A stretch of 64,000 nucleotides of DNA from Thermoanaerobaculaceae bacterium (GTDB lineage: Bacteria > Acidobacteriota > Thermoanaerobaculia > Multivoradales > UBA5704): assembly GCA_963717295.1 (NCBI GenBank), contig OY970330.1:5227717-5291716 (forward strand). Direction: 5' to 3'. A program made the position numbers and the translations under genes. The notes under the pieces were generated by a model. The model was not told the DNA's origin. It did no database searches and saw only the letters and a list, made by a program, of their open reading frames with translations. Shown here piece after piece: positions 2,767 to 54,985 of this stretch (position 1 is its first letter; each line of letters begins with the position of its first letter).

Positions 2767-3464
2767 CGCCCGGCCCCCACGCCGGCCTCGACGAGGCTCT
2801 CGAAGAGCGCCAGGCCGTCCGTGTTGCCCAGCACCGCCTCGGAGGCACGCTCCGGATGAGGCATCAGCCCCAGCACGTTGCCGGCCTGGTTGGCGATGCC
2901 CGCGATGTTGCGCGCGGCACCATTGGGGTTGCTCTCAGGAGTCACCCGGCCGTCCGGCTCGCAGTAGCGGAAGACCACCTGGCCGCCCGCCTCCAGCGCA
3001 TCCAGCCGCTCCGGCGAATCCTCGTAGTTCCCCTCGGCGTGGGCGATGGGCAGGCGCAGCACCCGCCCCGGCGCCAGCGTGCCGGTGAACGGCAGGTCCG
3101 TGCGCTCCGTCTTCAGATGGACGTCGAGGCACTGGAAGCGCAGGTTCTCGTTGCGCCGCATGGCGCCCGGCAGCAGGCCGGCCTCCAGCAGCACCTGGAA
3201 GCCGTTGCAGATGCCCAGCACCAGGCCGCCGGCCTCGGCGTGGCGCTTGACGGCGCCCATCACCGGCGACAGGGCGGCGAGGGCTCCGGCGCGCAGGTAG
3301 TCGCCGTAAGCGAAGCCGCCCGGCAGCACGATCAGCTCGCAGCCCTGAAGCGAGTCGTCCTGGTGCCACAGGAACGTGGCCTCCTGGTGCAGCACGTGCT
3401 TCCAGACGTGGTAGACGTCGTGGTCGCAGTTGCTGCCAGGGAAGACGACGACGCCGCATTTCAT
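2763..3464 (-). CDS. purQ: phosphoribosylformylglycinamidine synthase subunit PurQ (glutaminase)
   Basis: [16 protein letters not shown]...GICNGFQ...HPER glutamine amidotransferase motifs. True ATG is at 3462-3464 and the ORF-track N-extension is rejected. 4-bp overlap with purL. Confidence 0.9.
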
Positions 3465-3721
3465 GGCTTCACTCCCGCCTCGCCGAGGAGCTCCACCGAG
3501 TAGTCCTCGACCACGGTGTTGGCCAGCAGCTTCTCGCACATCTCGCGCAGCTGCCCTTCGGCGGCCTGGGCGTCGCCGGTGCCCAGCGAGATCTCGAAGC
3601 TCTTGCCGGCGCGGACGTCGTCGACGCCCGGGAAGCCGACGCGGGTGAGCGCGTCGCGGATCGCTTTGCCCTGGGGATCGAGGATCTCGCGGCGGGGATA
3701 GACCGTCACTCTTGCCTTCAC
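3461..3721 (-). CDS. purS: phosphoribosylformylglycinamidine synthase subunit PurS
   Basis: 86-aa ORF MKARVTVYPRREILDPQGKAIRDAL... typical of PurS. ATGA overlap with purQ. Confidence 0.85.
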   Translation of the reverse strand: MKARVTVYPRREILDPQGKAIRDALTRVGFPGVDDVRAGKSFEISLGTGDAQAAEGQLREMCEKLLANTVVEDYSVELLGEAGVKP

Positions 3722-3747
3722 GGTTCTTTAGACCTCCTGGACGTTAC

Positions 3748-4713
3748 CTAGACTTCGAGCCACGGCGTCGGGTGAAACTGCTCGGTCACCGCCAGCCGCG
3801 CGGAGCAGCCCTCCCGGTCCAGCGCCTCGCCGATCGCGGCGGCGGCCAGGGCGGGCAGGTTGTTGGTGCGGGAGAGGTGATAGAGGGCCACCCAGCTCAG
3901 CCGGCTCCCCATCAGCTCGGGGAGGCCTTCCGCGGCCTCCCGGTTCGACAGATGGCCATGGCGGCCGGCCACCCGCTGCTTCAGGCTCCAAGGATAGGGG
4001 CCGTTGCGCAGCATGTCGAGATCGTGGTTGGTCTCCAGCAGCAGGACGTCCAGGTCGCGCAGCCTTCCCCAGGCGAGGCTGGTGCGGCAGCCGATGTCGG
4101 CCACCAGGCCCAGGCGCCGGCCCGACGGGGTCTCCACCACGAAGCCCACGGGCTCGGCGGCGTCGTGCGGAATGAGGAACGGCTCGATGACGAACCCCGC
4201 CACCTCCCGCGGCTCCCCCGAGCGGATCACGATCGTGGACCGGAACCGGTCCTCCTTCAGGCCAGCGCCCTCGCGGGTGCCGGCGGTCGCCAGCACGGGG
4301 ACCTTGAACCGCTTGGCGAAGGCGTCCACTCCCCGGCAGTGATCCTGGTGCTCGTGGGTGAGGACCACGGCGGAGATGGTCTTGGGATCGATGTCGAGCA
4401 GGGCCATCCGCCGCACGATCTCCTTGCAGGAGAAGCCGGCGTCGATGAGGATGCGCCGGCCGCCGGACTCGACGACCACCGCGTTGCCGCCGCTGCCGGA
4501 GCCGAGGATGCCGACGCGCAGAGGCGATCCCCCTGGATCCGGCGCGGGCTTGGGGACGTACGGAGGTGGAGCGGATTCCGGCGGCGGGGGCGCGTGGGGC
4601 TCGGGCGGAGCGGCCTGGAGCTCATCCGAGGGATTGGGCGCGAAGAAGCTCTGCTGCCCTGCCGCCTCCAACTGCCGCCGGCGGCGGATGATCCTTTCCA
4701 GAGGGGACCCCAC
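3748..4713 (-). CDS. MBL-fold metallo-hydrolase with Pro-rich N-terminal extension
   Basis: VLTHEHQDH motif and later His/Asp ligands of the metallo-beta-lactamase fold (YycJ-like). Pro/Ala-rich first ~60 aa. Confidence 0.7.
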   Translation of the reverse strand: MGSPLERIIRRRRQLEAAGQQSFFAPNPSDELQAAPPEPHAPPPPESAPPPYVPKPAPDPGGSPLRVGILGSGSGGNAVVVESGGRRILIDAGFSCKEIVRRMALLDIDPKTISAVVLTHEHQDHCRGVDAFAKRFKVPVLATAGTREGAGLKEDRFRSTIVIRSGEPREVAGFVIEPFLIPHDAAEPVGFVVETPSGRRLGLVADIGCRTSLAWGRLRDLDVLLLETNHDLDMLRNGPYPWSLKQRVAGRHGHLSNREAAEGLPELMGSRLSWVALYHLSRTNNLPALAAAAIGEALDREGCSARLAVTEQFHPTPWLEV

Positions 4714-4757
4714 CCCCGAGAAAATACCACATTTTGTGGCCGGCCCTGAGCCCTAAG

Positions 4758-5519
4758 CTAGAACTTGTACTCGCGACCCTGCTCGAGAAAGGAGATGTCG
4801 GGGTTGCGCAGCAGCCCGATCTCCTCCTTGATCTTCTCGACGCAGGGGGGCTTCAGATGGTGGATGAGGATGGGGACCCGCTTCTGCAGCTTCCTCAGCT
4901 CGATCTCCAGGGTGCGGGGGGTCAGGTGCAGGGAGACGTCCGCCACCTGCTGCAGGGAGTTGTCGAAGCTGGTGTCGATGCAGAGGGCCTTCAGGTTCGG
5001 GGTGCGGTTGGCGATCTCCCAGAAGCGCTGCGTGGGCCCGGTATCGCTCGACCACAGCACCGCGGCGCCGTTCTGCTCGATGAGAAAGCCATGGGTGGGC
5101 ACCAGGTGGTCCACCGGGATGGGGGTGAACTTGACGCCGTCGATCACCACCGGCACCTCGCTCTCGAGCTCCAGGAAGCGCACCGCCGGCAGCAGGTGGT
5201 TGGGCAGGCGGGTGAAGTCCGGCCAGGTGGCGTTGTTGAACAGGTACTTGCGCAGAGCGTAGACCGTGGGGGACGAAGCGTAGATGTCGATCGCCCCAAC
5301 GCTCCGGCCGAAGACGTTCTCGATGAAGAACGGCAACGAGTTGGTGTGGTCCATGTGCGAGTGGCTGAGAAGGATGGAATGCACCCCCACCTGCCGCTCG
5401 ATGGAGAGGGACTGGGAGAGCGATCCGGCGTCCAGTGCGATCGTGCCGTTGATCAGCAGGCAGGTCATCCTGCACTCCAGGCTCTCGCCGCCGTAGCCCC
5501 CTAGCACCTGGATCAGCAT
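4758..5519 (-). CDS. MBL-fold hydrolase, class-II cyclic-nucleotide phosphodiesterase-like
   Basis: LSHSHMDH motif plus downstream His/Asp residues. 253 aa. Confidence 0.7.
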   Translation of the reverse strand: MLIQVLGGYGGESLECRMTCLLINGTIALDAGSLSQSLSIERQVGVHSILLSHSHMDHTNSLPFFIENVFGRSVGAIDIYASSPTVYALRKYLFNNATWPDFTRLPNHLLPAVRFLELESEVPVVIDGVKFTPIPVDHLVPTHGFLIEQNGAAVLWSSDTGPTQRFWEIANRTPNLKALCIDTSFDNSLQQVADVSLHLTPRTLEIELRKLQKRVPILIHHLKPPCVEKIKEEIGLLRNPDISFLEQGREYKF

Positions 5520-5591
5520 ATATAGAAACAGGATTGTATCTCTCGCCTGCCCGAGGAAACAAGCGCGGCGGCGGGAGACGGCGGGAGACGC

Positions 5592-5615
5592 CCCCTCTCT
5601 TTTGCGAGAGAGGGG
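5592..5615 (-). terminator. stem-loop ccccctctct-tttgcg-agagagggg downstream of the PAP2 gene
   Basis: Perfect 9-bp stem just after the 5635 stop of the minus-strand gene. Preceded by tandem ggcgggagac x2. Confidence 0.45.
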
Positions 5616-9860: not shown

Positions 9861-10584
9861 TCATTCTAAGCCGGTTCGCCGGACGATCTGTTCCCAAACC
9901 TCGCTGAACTCGTAGAAACCCTCGCGTCCGATCATCCAGCGGGCGGCGCGCAGGGCGCCGTGGGCGAAGCCGGCCCGGCTGCGGGCGCGGTGCTCCAGGG
10001 TGATCGTGTCCGCCTCGGAGTCGAAGCCGATCTGGTGCGTGCCCGGGATCGATCCCGCCCGGTTGCTGGCGACGTCGATGGGCCGCGACTACCCCGCCTC
10101 CTCCATCACCCTCTTGATCTCCAGCAGCGTGCCCGAAGGGGCGTCCTTCTTCTTGCTGTGATGGATCTCGTAGGCCCAGGCGTCGTAGGCCGTCTCCTGG
10201 GCCAGCAGGCGCGCCGCGGCCGCGGCGAGGCGGTAGAAGACCATGCACGCCGACCGAGAAGTTGGCGCCATGGAGCAGGCGCGCCGTCGCAACGTTCGAC
10301 CGCCTCCCGCACCGCGGCCAGCTGTCCTGCCAGCCGGTCGTGCCCACCACCAGGGGTACGCCCGAGCGCGGCGAGCCGCTCGGCGTTGGCCGGCAACGGC
10401 GCCGGCGACCGAGAAGTCGATCGCGACATCGACCCCCTCGAAGCGCTCCGCCGTGATGCCCGCTCCCCCGGCGTTGTCCGCCCCCGCGAGCCGCACCACC
10501 ACCTTGAAACCGTGCGCCGGAGCGAGCTGCTCGACGAAGCTTTCCCATCTGGCCGTAGCCGATCAGAGCGAGACGTCGCTTCAT
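9861..10584 (-). pseudogene. dapB: 4-hydroxy-tetrahydrodipicolinate reductase, at least 4 frameshifts
   Basis: MKRRLALIGYGQMGK / ITAERFEGVDVAIDFS / VPLVVGTTGW...GANFSVGV / YEIHHSKKKDAPSGT / SIPGTHQIGFDSEADTITLEHRARSRAGFAHGALRAARW are all found, but they alternate between frames. Stop at 9861-9863. Confidence 0.7.
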
Positions 10585-10599
10585 TCCACCACCTCATCA

Positions 10600-11965
10600 A
10601 TGTCCACCACGGAAGAAGCTCCTCGTGGAGGGCCGCGACCAACTCGGGGAGATCCTCCTCGTCGGCCAGCAGGCGGACGGTCGGAGCGGCGACACCTTGC
10701 AACACCAGCCGCGGCTCGAAACCGGCGCCCGCGGCGAGAGCCCGCTCCACCAGCTCCGGCGACGTCGCGAAATCCTCCGAGACCAGCGACACGACGCACC
10801 GGCCGCGATGGTCATCCAGACCTCGGCGGAGCTGCCCACGGCCGCCAGCAGCGCCGCGTGGACGTCGGAGAGCCGGTCCTCCGATCGAGAGCGAGCTCGC
10901 CCTTCGGCGTCGAGCGTCAGGAGTGCCGGCCGGAAACGCTCGCAGACCTCCTCGAGGCTCGGCGAACAGCCCTTCCCCATCCTTGGAATCCGTGGCGAGC
11001 GCGGAGATCGAGATGCGCGTTGGACCGGCAGGCGATCGACTTGACGACCGGCGGCGCCTCCGGATCGCGGCGGCCGATGATCGTGCCCTCCGCCTCCGGA
11101 TGCCGGGAGTCCAGAATGCGGATCGGGACGTTCGCCCGGCTGGCCGGCCCCAGCGTGCCGTAGTGCGGCTTCTTGGACCCCGAGCAGGAGAGCTCCAGCG
11201 CCTCGGCGAACGAGAGCGTGCGCACCCGCCGGGCTCCCGGGTAGAGCCGGCGGATCGGCGGTGCGCATGCCGTCCACGTCGGTCCAGATCTGCACCTCCT
11301 CCGCGCCCAGGGCGGCGCCGACGATGGCGGCGGAGAAGTCCGAACCCTCCTTGCCGAGCGTCGTGGTCACCCCCTGGAGATTGGCGCCGACATAGCCGCC
11401 CACCACCGGCACCGTACCCTGCGCGCAGCAGCGGCAGCAGGGCCGAGCGCATGCGGGCGTTCGTCGGGCCGTAGATCGGCCGGGCGCGGGTGAAATCGTC
11501 GTCCGTCACCATCACCCGCCGGCAGTCCACCCAGGAGGAGTCGATGCCGGCGTGAGAGAGAGCGAACGAGAGAATGGCGCTCGCCAGCAGCTCGCCGTAG
11601 CCCGCGATCGTATCGGCCGCCTTGGGCGAGAGCGAACGGGCCGCCATGATCTCGTCGAGCCGCGTCCGCAGCTCGTTGAACCACGGATCGAGCATCGCAT
11701 CCAGAGCCGGCCGGCCCCCGGGAGGCACCACGGCATAGGCCTCGCGCCGGTGATACAGCTCGATCTGATCGAAGGCGGAATGGACCCTCTCCGCATCCCC
11801 CGCGGCCGCCGCGGCGGCGCCCGCCAGGAGATTGCGCGTCGTCAGCGCCATCGCCGACACCACCACCACTGGCTGGCGCTCCTGCCGGCCGCGGATGATC
11901 CCGCGCACCCGGCCGATCGCCTCGGCATCGTTGACCGAGCTGCCGCCGAACTTCATGACGATCAT
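10600..11965 (-). pseudogene. lysC: aspartate kinase, multiply frameshifted
   Basis: MIVMKFGGSSV N-terminus at 11965. The VVGGYVGA..TTLGKEGSDFSAAIVGAALGAEEVQIWTDVDG, LSFAEALELS...NVPIRIL and ACT-domain pieces lie in different frames. The exact 3' end near 10600 is uncertain. Confidence 0.6.
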
Positions 11966-11972
11966 GGGAGGG

Positions 11973-13022
11973 TCATCCGATCAACCCCTCACTCTTCATC
12001 ATCTCCGCGTTCAGCACCGCCGCCCCGGCCGCGCCGCGCAACACGTTGTGCGAGAGCGCCGCGAACTTCCAGTCGAGGACGTTGCACTCCCGGAAGCGGC
12101 CGACGGCCGTGGCCATCCCCTGCTCGATGCCGGCGTCCTTGCGCACCTGCGGGCGGTCCGGCGCGTCCATGAGGTGGATGGGCCGCTTCGGCGCCGAGGG
12201 GAGATTCCGCTCCTGGGGGAGGCCCGAGAAGGCGGCGAGGGCGGCCAGCAGCTCCTCGCGGCTCGCCTTCCGCTCCAGCTCGACGCTCGCCGTCACCAAG
12301 TGGCCGTCGATCGTGGGCACCCGGTTGCAGTTGGCGCTGACGAGGAAGGGGAGGGGCTGGATGCGGTCCCCGTCGAGATCGCCCAGGATCTTCTGCGTCT
12401 CGCTCTCGAGCTTCTTCTCCTCGTCGCCCCCGATATAGGGAATGACGTTGCCCAGGATGTCGAGCGACGGCACGCCGGGGTAGCCGGCGCCGGAGACGGC
12501 CTGGAACGTGGTGACCAGGACCTTCTTGATGCCGAACGGCTTCAAGGCGGCGAGCGGCATCACCAGCACCACGGCGGCACAGTTGGGATTGGTGACGAGG
12601 CTGCCCGTCCATCCCCGCTCGCGGCGTTGCGTGGCGAGAAGCCCGAGATGGCCGGGATTGATCTCCGGCACCAGCAGCGGCACGTCCGCGGCCATGCGGT
12701 AGTGGCTGGAGTTCGAGACCACGATATGGCCGGCGGCGGCAAAATCGCGCTCGATCTCCCCCGCCAGACTGCCGGACATGGACGAGAACACCAGCCGCGG
12801 CCCCTTCCCCGGAAGGCACTCCTCGACCGTCCGCCCCGCCGCCTCCGCGGGAGGAGGCCCCTCGAGCTGCCATGACGTCGCCTCCCGGTACACCTTCCCC
12901 GCGCTACGGTCGCTCGCCGCCAGCCACGTCGCCTTGAACCAAGGATGGTTCTCCAAGAGCTGAATGAAACGCTGCCCCACCGTCCCGGTGGCGCCCAGAA
13001 TGCCGACCTCGATCTTGTCCAT
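11973..13022 (-). CDS. asd: aspartate-semialdehyde dehydrogenase (intact)
   Basis: MDKIEVGILGATGTVGQRF...SNPNCAAV... 349 aa. ATG at 13020-13022. The 520-aa ORF-track version is an upstream extension. Confidence 0.85.
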   Translation of the reverse strand: MDKIEVGILGATGTVGQRFIQLLENHPWFKATWLAASDRSAGKVYREATSWQLEGPPPAEAAGRTVEECLPGKGPRLVFSSMSGSLAGEIERDFAAAGHIVVSNSSHYRMAADVPLLVPEINPGHLGLLATQRRERGWTGSLVTNPNCAAVVLVMPLAALKPFGIKKVLVTTFQAVSGAGYPGVPSLDILGNVIPYIGGDEEKKLESETQKILGDLDGDRIQPLPFLVSANCNRVPTIDGHLVTASVELERKASREELLAALAAFSGLPQERNLPSAPKRPIHLMDAPDRPQVRKDAGIEQGMATAVGRFRECNVLDWKFAALSHNVLRGAAGAAVLNAEMMKSEGLIG

Positions 13023-13184
13023 GCCCTCTCCACTCCGCAGCGACGTGGGCGCGGAGGCCCGCCACGGAGTGGGACAGTTTACCGGGTGTGGGGGCGGGAG
13101 GCCATGGCCGGGAGCTGCCGGAGTGGTGAGGGTCCCCGGCAACCCGAGAGAGCCCGGATTTTGACCCGTCGGCTGCCCATCGTA

Positions 13185-13217
13185 GAGACGCCCACGGGGT
13201 ACCCCGTGGGGCGTCTC
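13185..13217. promoter_or_regulatory. 32-bp near-perfect palindrome gagacgcccacgggg-ta-ccccgtggggcgtctc about 165 bp upstream of asd
   Basis: 15-bp arms with a single extra G. Intergenic between asd and the DUF433 remnant. Confidence 0.3.
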
Positions 13218-13335
13218 AATCGGAGCGTCGCGCTTCCCGTTGTCCGGGTCATCCTGGGGCGCGTCCTCCTCGGTGTTCATGCCGTTCAGGTGGCGGTGAA
13301 GATCTCGCCTCTTTAGAGTCCATCCCAGCCATGAT

Positions 13336-13599
13336 TCAGGCTGCTTCATTCTCCTGGATCTGCTGCTCGGTCTCCTCCCGATGGCCGCGGTAGAAGGACC
13401 AGGCATTGGCCAGATCCTCGGCCCGAAGAGATGGGTACGACCGCAGGAGCTCGGCCTCACTCGTCCCCTACCTCCTCGCCTGGACCAGCAACCACACTGG
13501 GATCCGGGTCCTGACGATGCAAGGGTCGCCTCCACAGACCTCTGGATTGGACTGGATACCCGGGTAACTGTCTCCGAGGTCGCGCAGAAGCTTGGTCAT
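13336..13599 (-). pseudogene. DUF433-family small protein with in-frame amber codon
   Basis: MTKLLRDLGDSYPGIQSNPEVCGGDPCIVRTRIPVWLLVQARR-TAG-GTSEAELLRSYPSLRAEDLANAWSFYRGHREE matches DUF433 across the TAG at 13468-13470. Same frame on both sides. Confidence 0.55.
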
Positions 13600-14005
13600 C
13601 CAAGATCGTCCTCAGCCGGATGATATCTCTCTGGGAGCCCCGGCGGAATCGCACTCGGTCTCCCCTGCCGGGCCATCGCGTCGAGCACGGGCCTGCTTGA
13701 ACCTTCCAGTTTTGGGAACTACCATTCCCAATATGAGAATTGAGCTGGCCCCGAGGGATCGACGGGCTGGTTCGCTCCGCACGGAGCCGGCTCAGGGACG
13801 CTGACGGTCGGATCTTGCCAAGGAGAGCCGTTTCGACCTCGCCGGGGACCTTCGAGCTGCCAGCCATGGCCTTCGTCCGCCTAAACTCCTCGCCTGCCAG
13901 CCGCAGACACTACAAAACGGGGATTGAGGTATAGAATTCAGAGGCAGGGGCCCAGGTCAAGGCGCTAGAGCGTCGAAGCCGGCTGGCAAGAAAGTAGAGG
14001 ACCAG

Positions 14006-14224
14006 ATGACTCAGTTACTCGAACAGGCATTCACCAAAGCATCGCAGCTTTCTTCCGAAGAGCAGGACACCCTTGCCTCGCTCATCCTAAAAGAGATCGA
14101 AGCCGATCAGCGTTGGGACGACGCCTTCGCAAAGAGCCAGAATTCTCTTTCCCGGTTCGCCGATGAGGCGCTGGCCGAGCATCGGGCGGGCAGGACCAAG
14201 CGGCTCAATGTGGACAATTTGTGA
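14006..14224 (+). CDS. type II antitoxin (addiction-module component paired with a RelE/ParE-family toxin)
   Basis: 72 aa, MTQLLEQAFTKASQLSSEEQDTLASLILKEIEADQRWDDAFAKSQNSLSRFADEALAEHRAGRTKRL is a typical cyanobacterial-type antitoxin. ATGA overlap with the next gene. Confidence 0.6.
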   Translation: MTQLLEQAFTKASQLSSEEQDTLASLILKEIEADQRWDDAFAKSQNSLSRFADEALAEHRAGRTKRLNVDNL

Positions 14225-14490
14225 TTTCCTACACAACGGACGGATTCTGGAAATCTTACAGAAGGCTAACTGAAGCGGTCCGGAAGCAGGCGCGAGAGCG
14301 CTTATCGGCAGTTCGAGAAGAATCCTCATCATCCGAGCCTGCACTTCAAGCGGGTCCACTCAAGCAGACCAATATACTCGGTTCGAGTGAATCTGGATTA
14401 TCGAGCAGTGGGCATAAGAGATGGCGAAGAGATCGTCTGGCACTGGATAGGTCCCCACGACGAATATGAGAAGTTGATCGGACGGATGTA
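14221..14490 (+). pseudogene. RelE/ParE-family toxin with +1 frameshift near 14300-14310
   Basis: Frame 1 gives MISYTTDGFWKSYRRLTEAVRKQARERLSAV. From 14306, frame 2 gives RQFEKNPHHPSLHFKRVHSSRPIYSVRVNLDYRAVGIRDGEEIVWHWIGPHDEYEKLIGRM, the canonical toxin C-terminus. Stop at 14488-14490. Confidence 0.6.
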
Positions 14491-14499
14491 GACGTTGGC

Positions 14500-14830
14500 G
14501 GTTTGCATTGAAGGAGCTCCATACCTTGTCCGGGTCGGAATTGCCAGGATGATACTTGGATGCCTCAGAGAGGGCTTTGCAAGGCCGGCTCGGGGCACAC
14601 CTCCCCCAAGCGAGCACCAGGCTCGGCATGGCCCTCCGGCGGGCGATGAGGCTGTCAAAGAACCTAGCCGCTCCTCTATCCAGCCACGAACGGTAAAGCC
14701 GGCGGGAAGCATCCGGCAGGAAACGGCGCGCGCCGATCTCCTCGCCTCAACCGCTCGGACGCCTCCCGAAAGGCGCCGACGAAGGCGGCATAGATCTCGT
14801 AGAGAATAGGAGCCAGAGTCTTTCGGCCTG
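14500..14830 (-). repeat. copy A (inverted) of a ~260-330 bp module: conserved 3' coding end plus ~100-bp trailer
   Basis: Minus strand encodes ...LYEIYAAFVGAFREASERLRRGDRRAPFPAGCFPPALPFVAG-stop, then trailer ...ggttctttgacag...cgcccgccggagggccatg.... Homologous to 25241-25590 and 25911-26290. The end of one arm of the agtcttctaataagactctggctcc hairpin lies at 14806-14824. Confidence 0.6.
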
Positions 14831-14833
14831 CCG

Positions 14834-15064
14834 ATGACCTCACGCGTGCTGGAATTCGTGCCCAACGAGCGCATTGCCTGGGATGCCAGGGGCCCCGGCG
14901 TTCTCGCCTATCATGCCTGGCTGATCACGCCGACCCCGACCGGCTGTCACGTGCTCACCGAGGAGCGCCAGCACGGTCGCATCGCCTGGCTCCAAAGCGT
15001 CGTACTACCCAACCGGATGCACTACAAACACCAGATCTGGCTCGAAGGGCTGAAGGACAGTTAG
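14834..15064 (+). pseudogene. SRPBCC/polyketide-cyclase-like C-terminal fragment
   Basis: 76-aa ORF ...VPNERIAWDARGPGVLAYHAWLITPTPTGCHVLTEERQHG... resembles the C-terminal half of SRPBCC proteins. No N-terminal half upstream. Confidence 0.4.
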
Positions 15065-15314
15065 GCCGCGGCCTCCCCTTGCCTCGCCCGACGAAAGGTG
15101 CGGCTAAAGGAGAGGCGATCCTTCGGTACCTCGGCCGCGCAGGCGAGCGCCTGCTGGCTCTGGGGATGCTTCCGACACGCGACGGGCGAGAGCCGCCCGT
15201 CGCGCCTCGTCCGATTAGGGGTTGTAGACCCCGCAGACGACCGAGCCGTCGGGGTTGGAAAAAGAGCCAAGCTCTTCTTGGGAGACGATCCAGTCTCTGT
15301 CCTGGCATCCGGCA

Positions 15315-16703
15315 CTATACGGCCGACTCTTTAATAAGTAGCGCATCGCCCCCAACGGTCCGCCATTGAGTCTTGATGAATTGACGAGCGGCGGTTATAA
15401 CTGAGACTGTGATGGCCTTCCGCTGAAGCTTAGCTGCGATACTTGACCACAACTTCCGCATTTGACCGTCTGAGGTTTCATCCAGGCCCATTATTGAAAG
15501 CGCATCAATCGCCTGCTTACAAATATCGACGGCAGCGCTTACGTCGCCTCGTCTCGTGAATGAGCCGACCATATAGATTTGGTCGAGAAAGTAACTCTTA
15601 TTCGATCGTTGCTCAAGATCAGCGGCAATCACTTCGGCAAAGAGCGCGTCCGCTTCCTGAAATCGGCCTAATGCTTCCAATAAGCGTGCTGCTGTAAATC
15701 TCCGCCGAAGCTGCACAAACGGATCGCCGAACTGATCGTATAATCCGGTGAGCGCCTCGAATCTTAACATCGCCTCTCTCTTCAAGCCACGCGTGATTAG
15801 CGCATCAATTCTTATGCTCTCCGCAAACATCAGAAGTCTTTTGTCTGACTCCGGAATCATCTTGTCCGCCTCCGCAAGTATTTCGATTGTGCGATCAGGA
15901 GCTACGTCGAGTAAAACATAAGCCACCTGTATCCTAGCTCTCGCGGCGTACCCGTGCGCACCGACTGCAATGAACTGTCTTGTGGCTTGGCTTAGAAGTT
16001 CCTCGGCTCTTTCGAGTCCACCGCAGTCACCTTCCACGAGTCCTTCAATTGCCATTAACAGCCCCCGGACGAAGCCGTTGCCTGATCCCCGGCGGGCGTT
16101 CTCGTTTCCTTGCTTAAGAGCCTCGCGAGCAGCAATCCACCTCGCCGAACGACGACGAGCACTAGCTAGCTCGGCGAAGCATTCCGCAAGCAAATCCGAT
16201 CTGTGGTCCTCCCTGATAGTGCCGGGTGGGATCTGTTGGCACGCAACCAATGCGAGCCCTACCCATTCTTCCCCCTCGGTCGGAGAGGAGGTAGAGCGAG
16301 CCTCTGAGAGCAGGCCCTTAACAAAGCCAGCATGATGCTTGCCCCTGTCTTTCACAATGGCTTCTCGCCTTGTTCTTCGCTGGGCGCGGCGGACATCGGC
16401 GACGGCAGCGGCAGAGGCTAGAGTCGTCTCCCGATCGGCCTGCTCCAACCGGAACCGCTCCAAAAGGCACCACAATGCTGAGTCCCGTGCCCAGGTCGCA
16501 ATCTTTGAAGACTTAGTTTTGCCGGGACACTTGCCAGCCAAGCGGTCCTCCAGGCCCGACAAAAAATCCTGTGACGCTCTCCAGCAGGCGGCACATGTCA
16601 TTAGGTGGAGCACGAGCTTGGTCTTACCCTCGCTCGGCCCTTCCGACTCCAGGACTTCTAGGTCCATCACCGTTGGATGCCACTCGCTCATTTTAGCGTC
16701 CAC
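15315..16703 (-). CDS. hypothetical protein: N-terminal zf-HC2-like Cys motif plus helical/TPR-like repeat domain
   Basis: 462 aa. HLMTCAACW...CPG motif resembles anti-sigma zinc-finger. The rest is alpha-helical repeats. Lower-GC island. Confidence 0.5.
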   Translation of the reverse strand: MDAKMSEWHPTVMDLEVLESEGPSEGKTKLVLHLMTCAACWRASQDFLSGLEDRLAGKCPGKTKSSKIATWARDSALWCLLERFRLEQADRETTLASAAAVADVRRAQRRTRREAIVKDRGKHHAGFVKGLLSEARSTSSPTEGEEWVGLALVACQQIPPGTIREDHRSDLLAECFAELASARRRSARWIAAREALKQGNENARRGSGNGFVRGLLMAIEGLVEGDCGGLERAEELLSQATRQFIAVGAHGYAARARIQVAYVLLDVAPDRTIEILAEADKMIPESDKRLLMFAESIRIDALITRGLKREAMLRFEALTGLYDQFGDPFVQLRRRFTAARLLEALGRFQEADALFAEVIAADLEQRSNKSYFLDQIYMVGSFTRRGDVSAAVDICKQAIDALSIMGLDETSDGQMRKLWSSIAAKLQRKAITVSVITAARQFIKTQWRTVGGDALLIKESAV

Positions 16704-16814
16704 TTCCTGCCGAGGCTGAGGTCTGCGTAAGTAAGTCTAGCGTGAAATCTACTCCCCATACTATATGAAAAAGCTAGAGCCGCTGGGTCAATTCCGGCGG
16801 CTCTAGTCAGAGGC

Positions 16815-16982
16815 TCAACCCCAGGGGTCCCAACCACTCCCTTGGTCCGAAGTCGGAGCAGGCGGCGCAGGGGGAGCGTTGAGCCCCAAGGGGTCAAGCC
16901 CGCTCCCATGCTTACTGACAACACCGGAGGATAAAGCGTAGGCGAGAAAGACAATAAAGAGAACCGCGAAGCGAACAGACAT
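16815..16982 (-). CDS. small secreted Gly/Pro-rich peptide (55 aa)
   Basis: ATG at 16980-16982 is preceded by GGGAGAAG. MSVRFAVLFIVFLAYALSSG signal peptide then HGSGLDPLGLNAPPAPPAPTSDQGSGWDPWG. Lies between two divergently oriented zf-HC2-like genes. Not in ORF track (too short). Confidence 0.35.
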   Translation of the reverse strand: MSVRFAVLFIVFLAYALSSGVVSKHGSGLDPLGLNAPPAPPAPTSDQGSGWDPWG

Positions 16983-17220
16983 AGCTTCTCCCTTTTTCGG
17001 GGCGCCAGATCAGAGACTCCATTGTCTCGGCAGACACCTCCTACGGAGGAAGTGTGTGCTTCTGAGGGGTAAAAGGACAAGTCAACTCATGGCACCAGAC
17101 TCTTCTACTTTCATCGCGCGCGAACGTTACTCGCCCTCCTGGCCGGCCCAGCCCGCATCTGGGTCGGCCACCATTTTTCCTCTTCCGTGCGTCCGGCTCC
17201 CAGAGCCATAAGGACTACCC

Positions 17221-18288
17221 ATGGAGCATGTCTCTCCTGAAGCCGTCGAAGACTTCCTTGCCTGCCGGCTTTCCCGGGAGGAATCCCGCGCCTTCGTGAG
17301 GCACCTACTTCGGTGCCCGGCCTGCCCTGCTCTTACCTCAGCAAAGACCGCTGCTGCATCCACTTGCCCAGGGAGGGAGTCTCTTCGGCGGCCGGCCTCT
17401 GGGCCGGCCGCCTATTCTTCTGCGTTCCGGCGCGCAATGGAGAGAGTCGCAGAGGTTCTGAGTCTCGATCCCCAGGGAAATGACATCAGGCCCCGGACCC
17501 TCTTGGAATGAGCGCGTCTTCCGAGCATTGCGGGCGAGCAGGGAGGAACTCAAGATCCTGCTCACGGAAGGAGGCATTCCTCCCGGTTCCGCCTACGACT
17601 TCCTTGCAGAGGCAATCGAGTCAGTCTCAAACGACAAATGGTTAATCTGCTCCGATCCGGCTGCGCTCTTGATAGCGACGGTGAAGGCGAGACTTCAGGC
17701 TGGGGAGTCGTCGAATACCCGGACGTCCCAGCCTGGGAAGCGAACGACGCCAGGAAGAAGGAGCAACAACAAGAGGAAGCACGGCGCCAAAGGCTGGCCC
17801 GGAAGGTAGCACGGCTGGCGCTTGCCGTCTTGGGCGAGGGGGAGCGAGAGAGTATTGAGCGGGAGACTGGTCTAGCTTCAGAGGGCGACCTCAGACGCTG
17901 GCTGCGGCGCGCTGCTTACTCTTCATCGTGGCGCGAGTTGATGGGCTCCGTACCGCTTGAAGGACTCCGCTTCGTTTCCTATGAGTCGCTTATCCGTCAC
18001 GCAATAGACAAGCCCGTCCGCTGTTGGTGCGTCGTACTCGACTTCGTGCCGAGTAAGGACGAAGAATACGACTACAACCGAGTTTTGTCTGGCGCTCCGT
18101 GGATCGGGGAAGCCGGAAGCGCCCTGATCGGCGTAATAGATGAACTCCGTAGGCACCGTCGGGCTCTGGTGACATGTCCGTCTGAAAGGGTAGCAAGAGG
18201 GTTGGCATCCACCATCAATCACAAGAAGCGACTCGGAGCCCTGGTCTATGGACCAAGGACGCGGGTCACCGAAGGGGAGAACGGATGA
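17221..18288 (+). pseudogene. disrupted hypothetical gene with zf-HC2-like N-terminus (segments in frames 1,2,1)
   Basis: 17221-17511 (HLLRCPACP...CPG, paralogous to the N-term of 15315-16703), 17480-17809 and 17638-18288 overlap in different frames. 18322-18582 follows after a stop. Confidence 0.3.
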
Positions 18289-18575
18289 GCCATCAAAGGC
18301 TGGCTCCTGAAAAAAAGACGTTTGAGGACAGTTGCTACGATCCTATCGTGCTTACCTGTCTTCGATCACCTCGGAAGCGAGGAAATGATTGGAATGCTGA
18401 CGTTGCTCGCCACCTTGGCTCCGGACGGATCGACGAATGAGCTTCACAAAATCGTGGAGCCTATTGTTATAGCTGCTGCCAAGAGGCCCGACTCGTGGGC
18501 ACTGCTAGAGAGGGTCTGGCCCGAACTGTGCCGCCTGATTGAGGAAGACGATGCCCTCACCAAGGAAGGTAAATC

Positions 18576-18799
18576 ATGGTGAAAGTGGGAAGCTGCATCG
18601 CAGTGCTTCGGATCGTGCGGGGGGGAGCCAGCTCGAATTGGCCCGCAAAGCGGGGATTGCCTCTGGAACCGTCTCGGACTACGAACGGGGCAAGATCTCC
18701 CCTGGGGTCGCGGCGCCGGTGTCGAAAGGAACCAGGCGATTCTTCTGGGGGACGCTGCTCCCAGGAGCCAGCGCGGGACCAGCGCCGCGCCGGTCTTGA
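18576..18799 (+). pseudogene. XRE-family HTH regulator interrupted at a G7 homopolymer (18619-18625)
   Basis: SD AAGGAAGG then ATG. MVKVGSCIAVLRIVRGG in one frame. One extra G would continue as SQLELARKAGIASGTVSDYERGKISP (canonical HTH_XRE) to the stop near 18799. Confidence 0.5.
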
Positions 18800-19020
18800 A
18801 GGATGTCTTCGGCCCCGATCTTTCATCGGCTGGAGCTCCGTTCTCTCCTGATCGTCTCACCCGCGATGCGATGTTGATCGCTCTATTCCCTCTCCCGCGC
18901 GCAGTCGCCAGAAACCCCTGCGACGGACATCTCCGAGCTCATGATCTCTCTCCTCCCAGAGCCGTAACGCCCTCGCGACGCGGGATTCGGTCTTCCGTTT
19001 ACCGCGAAAAGTGAATCCTT

Positions 19021-19200
19021 TGCGGCGATTGACGCACGGTTTGCGGTGATTGACGCTCCCAATGCGAGGGTAACACGACCCATTCTGTTCCGGAGCGGAC
19101 ACATTGCGGCATTGCGTCCGCCCAATGCCGCGTCGAGAGTGTGCATTGGGCGGATAGACATGCTCGGCGTGACGTTGGACGCTCTTATGCGGCGATTGAC
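19021..19200 (+). promoter_or_regulatory. three direct repeats TTGCGG(C/T)GATTGAC(G) upstream of the ADOP permease gene
   Basis: Copies at 19021-19033 and 19042-19054 (21-bp spacing) and 19188-19200. The repeat contains TTGAC. An additional palindrome gcggcattgcg...cccaatgccgc lies at 19106-19135. Confidence 0.35.
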
Positions 19201-19409
19201 AGGAGCTCTCATCACCGCGAAGTGCGCGTTCAATATCTTGATGTGACCCTTCTCACCAGCCAGAAAAGGAGCCAAGCTCTTCTTGCTCGGAAATAACGCT
19301 GGCACCTTTTGCTGGAGCCGGTGTGAACCCGGGGGTTGGGAGAGGCATCCGCACCTCCCCAACCCTGCCAAGGGTGACTCCCTTGGAGGAGAGATAGAAT
19401 TGGCCCACC

Positions 19410-25240: not shown

Positions 25241-26290
25241 GCACGCCGCTACCAAAGCCGCGCGCAGAGCGTTCTACGAAATCTACGCCGCCTTCGTCGG
25301 CGCCTTCCGGGAGGCGTCCGAGCGGTTGAGGCGAGGAGAGCGGGGCGCGCCGTTTCCTGCCGGATGCTTCCCGCCGGCTTTACCGTTTGTGGCTGGCTAG
25401 AGGGAGCGGGACAAGGTTCTTTGACAGTCGCATTGCCCGCTGGAGGGGCCATGTCGCTGAGCTCGGTTGCTCGCTTAGGGAAAAGTGTGCCCTTTTCACC
25501 CATGAAGAATCGTTCTCAGAGGCTTTGGCCGCCAGTTTGTTTGCCCGACGGCCTCCAAGAAAACGCGGCCTACCACGCCTACAGCGGCCTACCACGCCAG
25601 TCTTCTAATAAGACTCTGGCTCCTATTTCGGCGCAACCGACAACTTGGAGTTTGCCGCCCGCCTTCGCGGTAAAGATGTCGGACCGATTCGCTATGCCAC
25701 GGTCGAGACGGTAACTTTTTCTCCCATACCTTGCTGGGCCCATCTGTCGCCTGAAGTCTATCGGGCCCGGAACGTGGAGATGGTCGAATCCATCGAGGCC
25801 GAAGCTGCGCGGGAAAGAGAACGCACCGGCGCCTGCGTGCTCGGAGCCAAAGCCATTCTTGCCAGCGATCCGCTCCATCGCCCATCCTCCTTGGCCCGAT
25901 CGCCAGCACCTTGCGTCCACGCCGCCACAAAGGCTGCAAGGAGAGCGTTCTACGAAATCTACGCCGCTTTCGTCGGGGCCTTTCGGGAGGCGTCAGAGCG
26001 TCTGAGGCGCGGCGACCGCAACGCACCCTTCCCCGCCGGCAGCTTCCCGCCAGCCCTACCTTTCGTCGCTGGATAGAGGCATCGCCGATGCTCTTTGACA
26101 GTTTCACCGCCCACCGGAGGGCCAGATTCCGAGGCGAAGGCCCGCGAAAGGGGGAACGTGTATCCGGTCAGGCTCTCTTGAGAGGTTTCCAGAGCACCAA
26201 ACTGCCCCCGGCCAAGTTTCGAACCAGCCCAATGGGGCTGGCCTTCAGGAAGTCACTGGCACTTGTTTGGCCGGGCCTGCAGCGGACGGC
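25241..26290 (+). repeat. copies B (25241-25590) and C (25911-26290) of the conserved 3'-coding module plus trailer, separated by a second copy of the hairpin repeat (25591-25622)
   Basis: Both encode ...AATKAARRAFYEIYAAFVGAFREASERLRRG(E/D)R.APFPAG.FPPALPFVAG-stop. DNA differences between copies are mostly synonymous. Copy C retains ~90 upstream codons (MEFAARLRGKDVGPIRYATVETVTFSPIPCW...). Confidence 0.6.
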
Positions 26291-54739: not shown

Positions 54740-54756
54740 AGGCTCGAGTGGAAAGG

Positions 54757-54985
54757 CCCGAAGGGCCGACAGCATGTAGCCTGGGGCTAGCGCTTTTTGC
54801 CAGCCCCAGGTAGACGGCCCCAAAAACATCCGAAGCCCCGAAGGGGTGGCGGCAGTTTGCTTCAAACGATGGGCTGCCGTCGCCCCTATCGGGGCTATGG
54901 GAAATGTGGGGGGCGTGGGTTCCTGGGGCTGGCAAAAAAGCGCCAGCCCCAGGCTACATGCCGCTGCCCCTTCGGGGCAAACCTG
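54757..54985. repeat. hairpin-dense MITE-like element: ~45-bp inverted repeats each containing CCTGGGGCTrGC-loop-GCCAGCCCCAGG, plus several cgaa/ttcg tetraloop hairpins
   Basis: ...gacagcatgtagcctggggctagcgctttttgccagccccagg... versus ...cctggggctggcaaaaaagcgccagccccaggctacatgccgctg.... Also ggcccgaagggcc, ccccgaagggg and gccccttcggggc. Fills the gap between convergent brnA and the carbamoyltransferase gene. Confidence 0.5.

Follow-up and report, generated by a model that had tools for sequence, protein, structure and literature searches.

Two type II toxin-antitoxin modules, probably at different stages of erosion, in a variable island beside asd in Thermoanaerobaculia

Overview

The broken genes described here, which lie beside asd in Thermoanaerobaculia in an island of lower GC and variable content, very probably represent two separate type II toxin-antitoxin (TA) modules at different stages of erosion. 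Throughout, the window means the whole 64-kb stretch of DNA that was analyzed. Module 1 would be a former VapBC-like pair, composed of a DUF433 DNA-binding antitoxin and a DUF5615 PIN-like toxin. Its toxin would have been removed earlier, with a palindrome-bearing spacer of 220 nt now in its place and only the ATG and two codons left, and the orphan DUF433 gene, already deprived of 22 N-terminal codons, would have remained constrained by purifying selection up to a recent TTG-to-TAG change in the middle of its domain. Module 2 would be a two-gene operon in which a 72-aa antitoxin is translationally coupled to an 89-aa RelE/YoeB-like toxin; a single C inserted at codon 27 would have killed the toxin, and the still intact antitoxin would persist simply because the toxin died very recently. 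The locus shows module 1 at the second step of decay (toxin deleted, antitoxin now broken) and module 2 at the first (toxin just broken). The positions of all features are listed in Table 1.

Table 1 Features of the two modules and their surroundings, with positions in the window
Feature	Position	Strand	Basis
Lower-GC island holding both modules	13100..19400		GC 51-66% vs about 70-72% core
220-nt spacer in place of the 370-nt DUF5615 segment of L007	13105..13324		Alignment
DUF5615 (PIN-like toxin) relic, ATG and two codons (ATGGCTGG)	13325..13332	minus	Alignment with L007
DUF433 (COG2442, predicted VapB-type antitoxin) pseudogene, 87 codons	13336..13599	minus	Translation and PF04255
Intergenic region separating DUF433 from the divergent antitoxin gene	13600..14005		88% identical to L001
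72-aa predicted antitoxin of the ParE-like module, intact	14006..14224	plus	Uninterrupted 72-codon ORF
ParE_like (PF24732, RelE/ParE-superfamily fold) toxin pseudogene	14221..14490	plus	Translation, profile, alleles and fold

The DUF433 gene and its DUF5615 partner

The minus-strand translation of 13602..13330 reads MTKLLRDLGDSYPGIQSNPEVCGGDPCIVRTRIPVWLLVQARR, a stop, GTSEAELLRSYPSLRAEDLANAWSFYRGHREETEQQIQENEAA and a second stop. When the internal stop was masked as X, the product matched PF04255 over profile positions 1-56 of 56 (E=4e-21). The single in-frame TAG that the original prediction placed at 13468-13470 is present in the translation (codon 44, inside the domain; the plus strand reads 'cta') and is private to the window among the compared loci. 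In the alignment of relatives, the codon at this site is TTG (Leu) in L001, L007 and L008; therefore, the change was from TTG to TAG and not of the CAG-to-TAG type that had been suggested. The gene had also been described as complete except for the TAG, but canonical DUF433 has 109 aa and the window copy additionally lacks 22 N-terminal codons, which correspond to an in-frame loss of 66 nt directly behind codon 4 (junction about 13586/13587). This deletion is common to the window gene and the first DUF433 copy of L001, and the second copy of L001 is frameshifted by a 2-nt deletion. No further copies of DUF433, the antitoxin or the toxin were found within the 64-kb window.

Two lines of evidence bear on the role of DUF433, which had been regarded as a toxin. 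It has been shown experimentally that VapB10 (COG2442/DUF433) of Synechocystis PCC 6803 neutralizes the PIN toxin VapC10 and binds its promoter (PMC3834315); before that, Makarova et al. 2009 (PMC2701414) had already predicted a PIN-COG2442 class. In addition, we scanned the species-representative genomes of GTDB, as retrieved without the window's own genome, and identified 80 loci with a DUF433 64-92% identical to the query (best match 92%), the closest of which were Thermoanaerobaculia MAGs. Among the 79 loci that could be evaluated downstream, a full DUF5615 ORF of ∼113 aa directly followed DUF433 in 56, a partial one in 11 and none in 12. In L007, for example, the downstream 113-aa ORF, which starts with ATGGCTCGGCTCTATACC, is a DUF5615 protein (PF18480, E=2.6e-21). 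On this basis, DUF433 (COG2442) should be regarded as the antitoxin of PIN-like DUF5615 toxins and not as a toxin itself.

When three DUF5615 proteins were used as tblastn queries to look for an intact partner, no candidate emerged across the 64 kb of the window (E>0.05), and a six-frame reading of 13000-13345 revealed no DUF5615 remnant. What is left is the initial ATG with two codons, recognized by alignment, which begins 3 nt after the DUF433 stop. Since DUF5615 was already gone, the amber codon of the window sits in an orphan antitoxin.

The ParE-like module

The two other claims of the original prediction, that is, a +1 frameshift in a RelE/ParE-family toxin at '∼14306' and an overlapping antitoxin that is intact, both hold, although the frameshift lies 7 nt away from that position, at 14299. 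The antitoxin ORF is uninterrupted, has a GAGGA ribosome-binding site before its ATG, and its TGA overlaps the GTG start of the toxin (GTGA). From this GTG (14221), frame 1 encodes 26 native toxin residues and then runs out of frame to a TGA at 14467-14469 (82 aa), whereas frame 2 carries the remaining toxin, with YRQFEKNPHHPSL and a terminal GRM before the TAG at 14488-14490. The lesion is one extra C in codon 27, which is absent from all seven related DNA alleles that were aligned here (L001, L002, L004, L005, L006, L091 and L093): the window reads GAGCGCTTAT and each of the seven reads GAG-GCCTAY. Intact 89-aa relatives of the toxin were found at 96-98% identity.

The joined toxin matched ParE_like PF24732 with an E-value of 6.9e-13 (48.8 bits; cut-off 24.4), and this domain was present in all of the 120 homologues listed out of 477. 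Sequence search gave no solved relative of the toxin, and only the fold search returned matches. For P0001, which is 99% identical to the repaired toxin, an AlphaFold model built with 60 homologues had a pLDDT of 96, and its best PDB matches in Foldseek were RelE, YoeB, YafQ and YoeB/ParE (probability 1.00, TM 0.6-0.74). K43, H46, R55, R61, H79 and Y82 are among the nearly invariant residues of the toxin, and we infer from sequence conservation that these residues resemble the RNase sites of the RelE/YoeB type more than gyrase-poisoning ParE. The repaired toxin is probably an mRNA interferase, with a presumed RNase activity and toxicity. The frame is shifted within helix 2 (residues 18-33), so that every beta strand and the conserved C-terminal His/Tyr are lost and the toxin of the window should thus be dead.

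The 72-aa antitoxin had no match in Pfam, NCBIfam or PDB sequences, and no recognizable DNA-binding domain was detected in it. Homologues of 72-74 aa (51-60% identity) occur directly upstream of the toxin in L087, L089 and L090, either overlapping or abutting it, and the antitoxin-toxin pair is conserved in distant phyla (Brocadia, Rubrivirga and another genome). Because the homologous antitoxin gene precedes the toxin in these genomes, the pair is a genuine conserved module, in which the 72-aa protein would be expected to neutralize the toxin.

The asd site in related organisms

The island is flanked by asd and an ADOP/MacB-type permease gene, and the genes found beyond the modules, on their far side, vary between alleles. 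Several states of the same site could be identified. DUF433, DUF5615 and asd are all intact in L007. L008 is colinear with window 13586-11973 (89.9% identity) and has DUF5615 replaced by the spacer; in both, the ATG and two codons of DUF5615 are kept, followed by the 220-nt spacer instead of a 370-nt segment. In L001, DUF5615 was lost at a different breakpoint, with four codons kept, and the whole 1.2-kb block is present at 91.9% identity with both genes intact. DUF433 is gone from L091 (window 13264-13678 absent), in which the spacer and an intact ParE-like pair are kept, and only a ∼40-nt relic of it is found in L002 and L006. Taken as an allelic series, these sequences indicate an order of events at the asd site, from an intact pair through deletion of DUF5615 and the DUF433 amber to a deleted or relic DUF433.

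The ParE-like toxin has been broken independently in two further alleles, by a 10-nt deletion in L006 and by -1 and +1 indels 99 nt apart, together with His79Arg, in L093. Among the eight complete alleles, the antitoxin is intact in all and the toxin is broken in three; it should be noted that this contrast (3/8 vs 0/8) is not statistically significant on its own and is suggestive only. The decay order assumed at the outset, in which the toxin goes before the antitoxin, is upheld by the states of the asd locus in relatives. The idea of knocked-out toxins beside an intact antitoxin fits only part of the locus: it is right for the ParE-like module, given the frameshift, the lesions in L006 and L093 and the intact antitoxins, but wrong for DUF433, which is the predicted antitoxin of a DUF5615 gene that has been deleted.

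Spacer, intergenic region and other content of the island

The spacer is also present in L008 (85%), in L091 and downstream of the second DUF433 copy of L001 (89%). A near-perfect 16-bp palindrome (GAGACGCCCACGGGGT/ACCCCGTGGGGCGTCTC) lies inside it at 13185-13217, with no T-tract after it. The intergenic region between the two divergent genes contains frame-breaking indels relative to L001 and is therefore non-coding; its final ∼120 nt (13886-14005) accompany the ParE-like cassette in every allele. A conserved element of ∼50 nt (13703-13753) consists of a TTGGGAA-N6-TTCCCAA palindrome followed by TATGAGAAT. In the window and in L001 this element is located upstream of DUF433, but in L006 (680-730, 86%) it is found downstream of the toxin. 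A promoter and terminator scan of 12900-14700 gave nothing above shuffled background.

Several other observations concern the wider surroundings. A repeat family with 77-90% identity occurs in the window (14628-14803, 25242-25460 and 25679-26124), in L001 (5947-6399) and in L008 (1535-1643), and the ORFs across it had no Pfam match. L001 (JGI 3300046666; features 90-602, 2346-2606 and 3189-5601) contains a DUF3368 (PIN-like) gene convergent on DUF433, and also the second, frameshifted DUF433, a TIR_2-domain gene and then a 504-aa ORF; thus, the island varies between strains in TA and defence-like content. In the window, the same island includes an 86-aa ORF (18539-18799, plus strand) with an HTH_3 match (E=1.6e-6) and a weak YdaS_toxin match, which might represent a further small gene of the regulatory or TA-like type. 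Outside the island, an Rfam Acido-Lenti-1 sRNA was detected at 54754-54810 on the minus strand (43.2 bits, gathering score 37), which fits an origin in Acidobacteriota.

Selection and age of the lesions

The dN/dS of the toxin between the window and its relatives was 0.01-0.04, and downstream of the frameshift there were 12-17 synonymous and 0-2 non-synonymous differences, with no further decay. Thus, the frameshift is very recent, and the word 'degenerate', as used in the original prediction, overstates the condition of a toxin gene with such values and one fresh frameshift. DUF433 showed 13 synonymous and three non-synonymous differences, with a dN/dS of 0.06-0.10 among alleles; the orphan antitoxin was thus still constrained until the nonsense mutation.

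The private changes of the window lineage comprise five non-synonymous (R29K, E38D, D46N, A47S and D71N) and no synonymous changes in the antitoxin, as against seven synonymous and no non-synonymous changes in the toxin (Fisher's exact, about 0.001). The antitoxin is nearest to that of L004 (one synonymous difference), whereas the toxin differs from that of L004 at 19 synonymous sites, a contrast that suggests recombination between the two genes. We also considered whether the five changes of the antitoxin reflect selection that was relaxed once its toxin had died, and rejected this in view of the purely synonymous changes of the toxin over the same lineage. Moreover, a like pattern of five non-synonymous changes is seen in L005, whose toxin is intact, and the recombination histories of the antitoxin and the toxin appear to be different.

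Are the lesions real, and are the genes still expressed?

It is unlikely that either lesion, or both, arose as a consensus error in long-read metagenome assembly and that the real genes are intact. The concern arises from the 8.78-Mb contig on which the window lies and from an error-like patch in lysC 2-3 kb away, several insertions of which, like that at 14299, are a C before a G outside a homopolymer. In this patch (10073-11512), the window differs from L094 by 17 inserted and two deleted bases and by 50 substitutions. The relatives side with L094 at 50 of the 69 differing sites, and the window indels scatter lysC (aspartokinase) over shifted frames, with loss of its stop. Once the insertions are removed, the lysC protein is 94-95% identical to its relatives, also across the out-of-frame stretch, which argues for error rather than decay; the indels in this patch probably arose as consensus errors when the long reads of a strain-heterogeneous stretch were assembled. 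L094, which was found with the repaired lysC and is a second contig of run ERR11594404, has an intact 458-aa lysC and none of the 19 window indels, and matches the window exactly over 11513-12421. It follows that the ERR11594404 assembly does not depend on the consensus errors of the window and has not simply copied them. A Logan contig of the same run (L003, 1531 nt) shows 100% identity to window 13188-14718, so that both lesions stand together on a single contig; one of its ends lies inside a palindrome and the other inside a repeat. Because this independent assembly reproduces the amber and the extra C, both lesions can be taken as read-supported, as judged from separately assembled contigs, with a small chance left for a shared artefact. 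In addition, the amber is a substitution and not an indel, and long ORFs in other parts of the window are unbroken. The exact antitoxin sequence was found on the long-read-type contig of the window and on L003, and the exact frameshift allele had no match in JGI metagenomes. An exact look-up of the asd product of the window returned no record, probably due to a different start codon having been called.

If the lesions are real, the genes might still be expressed, either by read-through of the amber (suppressor tRNA or Pyl-type) or by a programmed frameshift that restores the toxin. We regard such recoding as extremely improbable, although each gene carries just one lesion and, apart from it, evolves under strong purifying selection. 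TAG ends 15 of the 42 high-GC3 ORFs of the window, including genes of 1438, 806 and 737 aa as well as the toxin gene, and so is a regular stop codon here; together with the plain Leu TTG at the amber site in relatives, this argues against the read-through that the original prediction had offered as an alternative. The search for a suppressor tRNA yielded, within the window, only a Ser-GCT tRNA, and no other relevant Rfam match was found there. As for the toxin, GCGCGAGAGCGCTTATCGG around 14299 has neither a slippery run nor a nearby stall codon, no homopolymer or slippery heptamer is present at 14290-14305, and the seven relatives are all in frame without the extra base.

One system rather than two?

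PaaR2-PaaA2-ParE2 of Escherichia coli O157:H7 is a three-component module. As in that system, the gene of a separate DNA-binding protein at our locus adjoins that of a short helical antitoxin in which no DNA-binding domain is evident, and the shortened DUF433 might have been recruited as a regulator of the divergent ParE-like operon, in a three-part arrangement like PaaR-PaaA-ParE. Both lesions are recent and private to the window, and DUF433, the 400-nt intergenic region, the antitoxin and the toxin move as a 1.2-kb block (92%; window and L001), which could be expected of such a system, as could a 72-aa antitoxin that has no recognizable DNA-binding domain. Nevertheless, we find this arrangement very unlikely, and a causal link between the two private recent lesions, with the loss of one component selecting for the loss of the other, is just as improbable. 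The DUF433 gene of the window is divergent and lies outside the operon, unlike the arrangement in PaaR2-PaaA2-ParE2, and it is dispensable in L091 and L002, which keep an intact toxin and antitoxin though DUF433 has been deleted. Moreover, the pair is also seen without DUF433, in Brocadia, Rubrivirga and another genome. A nearby ParE-like toxin is missing from all 80 DUF433 loci, of which only one (L017) shows a weak, partial antitoxin-like match. Two separate modules remain the preferred reading.

Comparison with known systems and implications

Module 1 shares with VapBC10 of Synechocystis the antitoxin domain PF04255 and, as seen in L007 and 55 other loci, the antitoxin-first gene order. Unlike VapBC10, the window has no toxin gene, and its antitoxin is truncated by the amber and 22 N-terminal codons shorter; furthermore, the partner in VapBC10 is the PIN toxin VapC10, whereas that in the relatives of the window is DUF5615 (PF18480). 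The toxin of module 2 resembles the RelE/YoeB/YafQ/ParE toxins in the shared Pfam domain, the predicted fold of two alpha helices and a beta sheet, and the small overlapping antitoxin gene upstream. It differs from the solved members in that there is no match at the sequence level, its antitoxin belongs to no described family and the window copy is frameshifted.

Erosion of chromosomal TA loci in two steps, with the toxin inactivated before the antitoxin is lost, has been described by Belot et al., Mol Biol Evol 2026 (PMC13617665). The order of events, the small variable spots and the kinds of lesion (point mutations, small indels and deletions) are the same here. In contrast with their genus-level curated set, our material consists of uncultured Thermoanaerobaculia, which belong to another phylum, and metagenomic alleles of one locus, and of sequence only. 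Toxin-first erosion of TA loci is already known; thus, what is added here is one more example, with a clear allelic series, and not a new kind of system, and current understanding is unchanged by it. For annotation, it implies that DUF433 should be read as an antitoxin and that both broken ORFs should be treated as fresh pseudogenes, not as recoded genes. At a single chromosomal site of uncultured Thermoanaerobaculia, the locus displays a compact natural series of steps along a path already described for cultured bacteria, and an orphan DUF433 that stayed under purifying selection after the loss of its toxin would fit the view that orphan antitoxins remain useful for a time.
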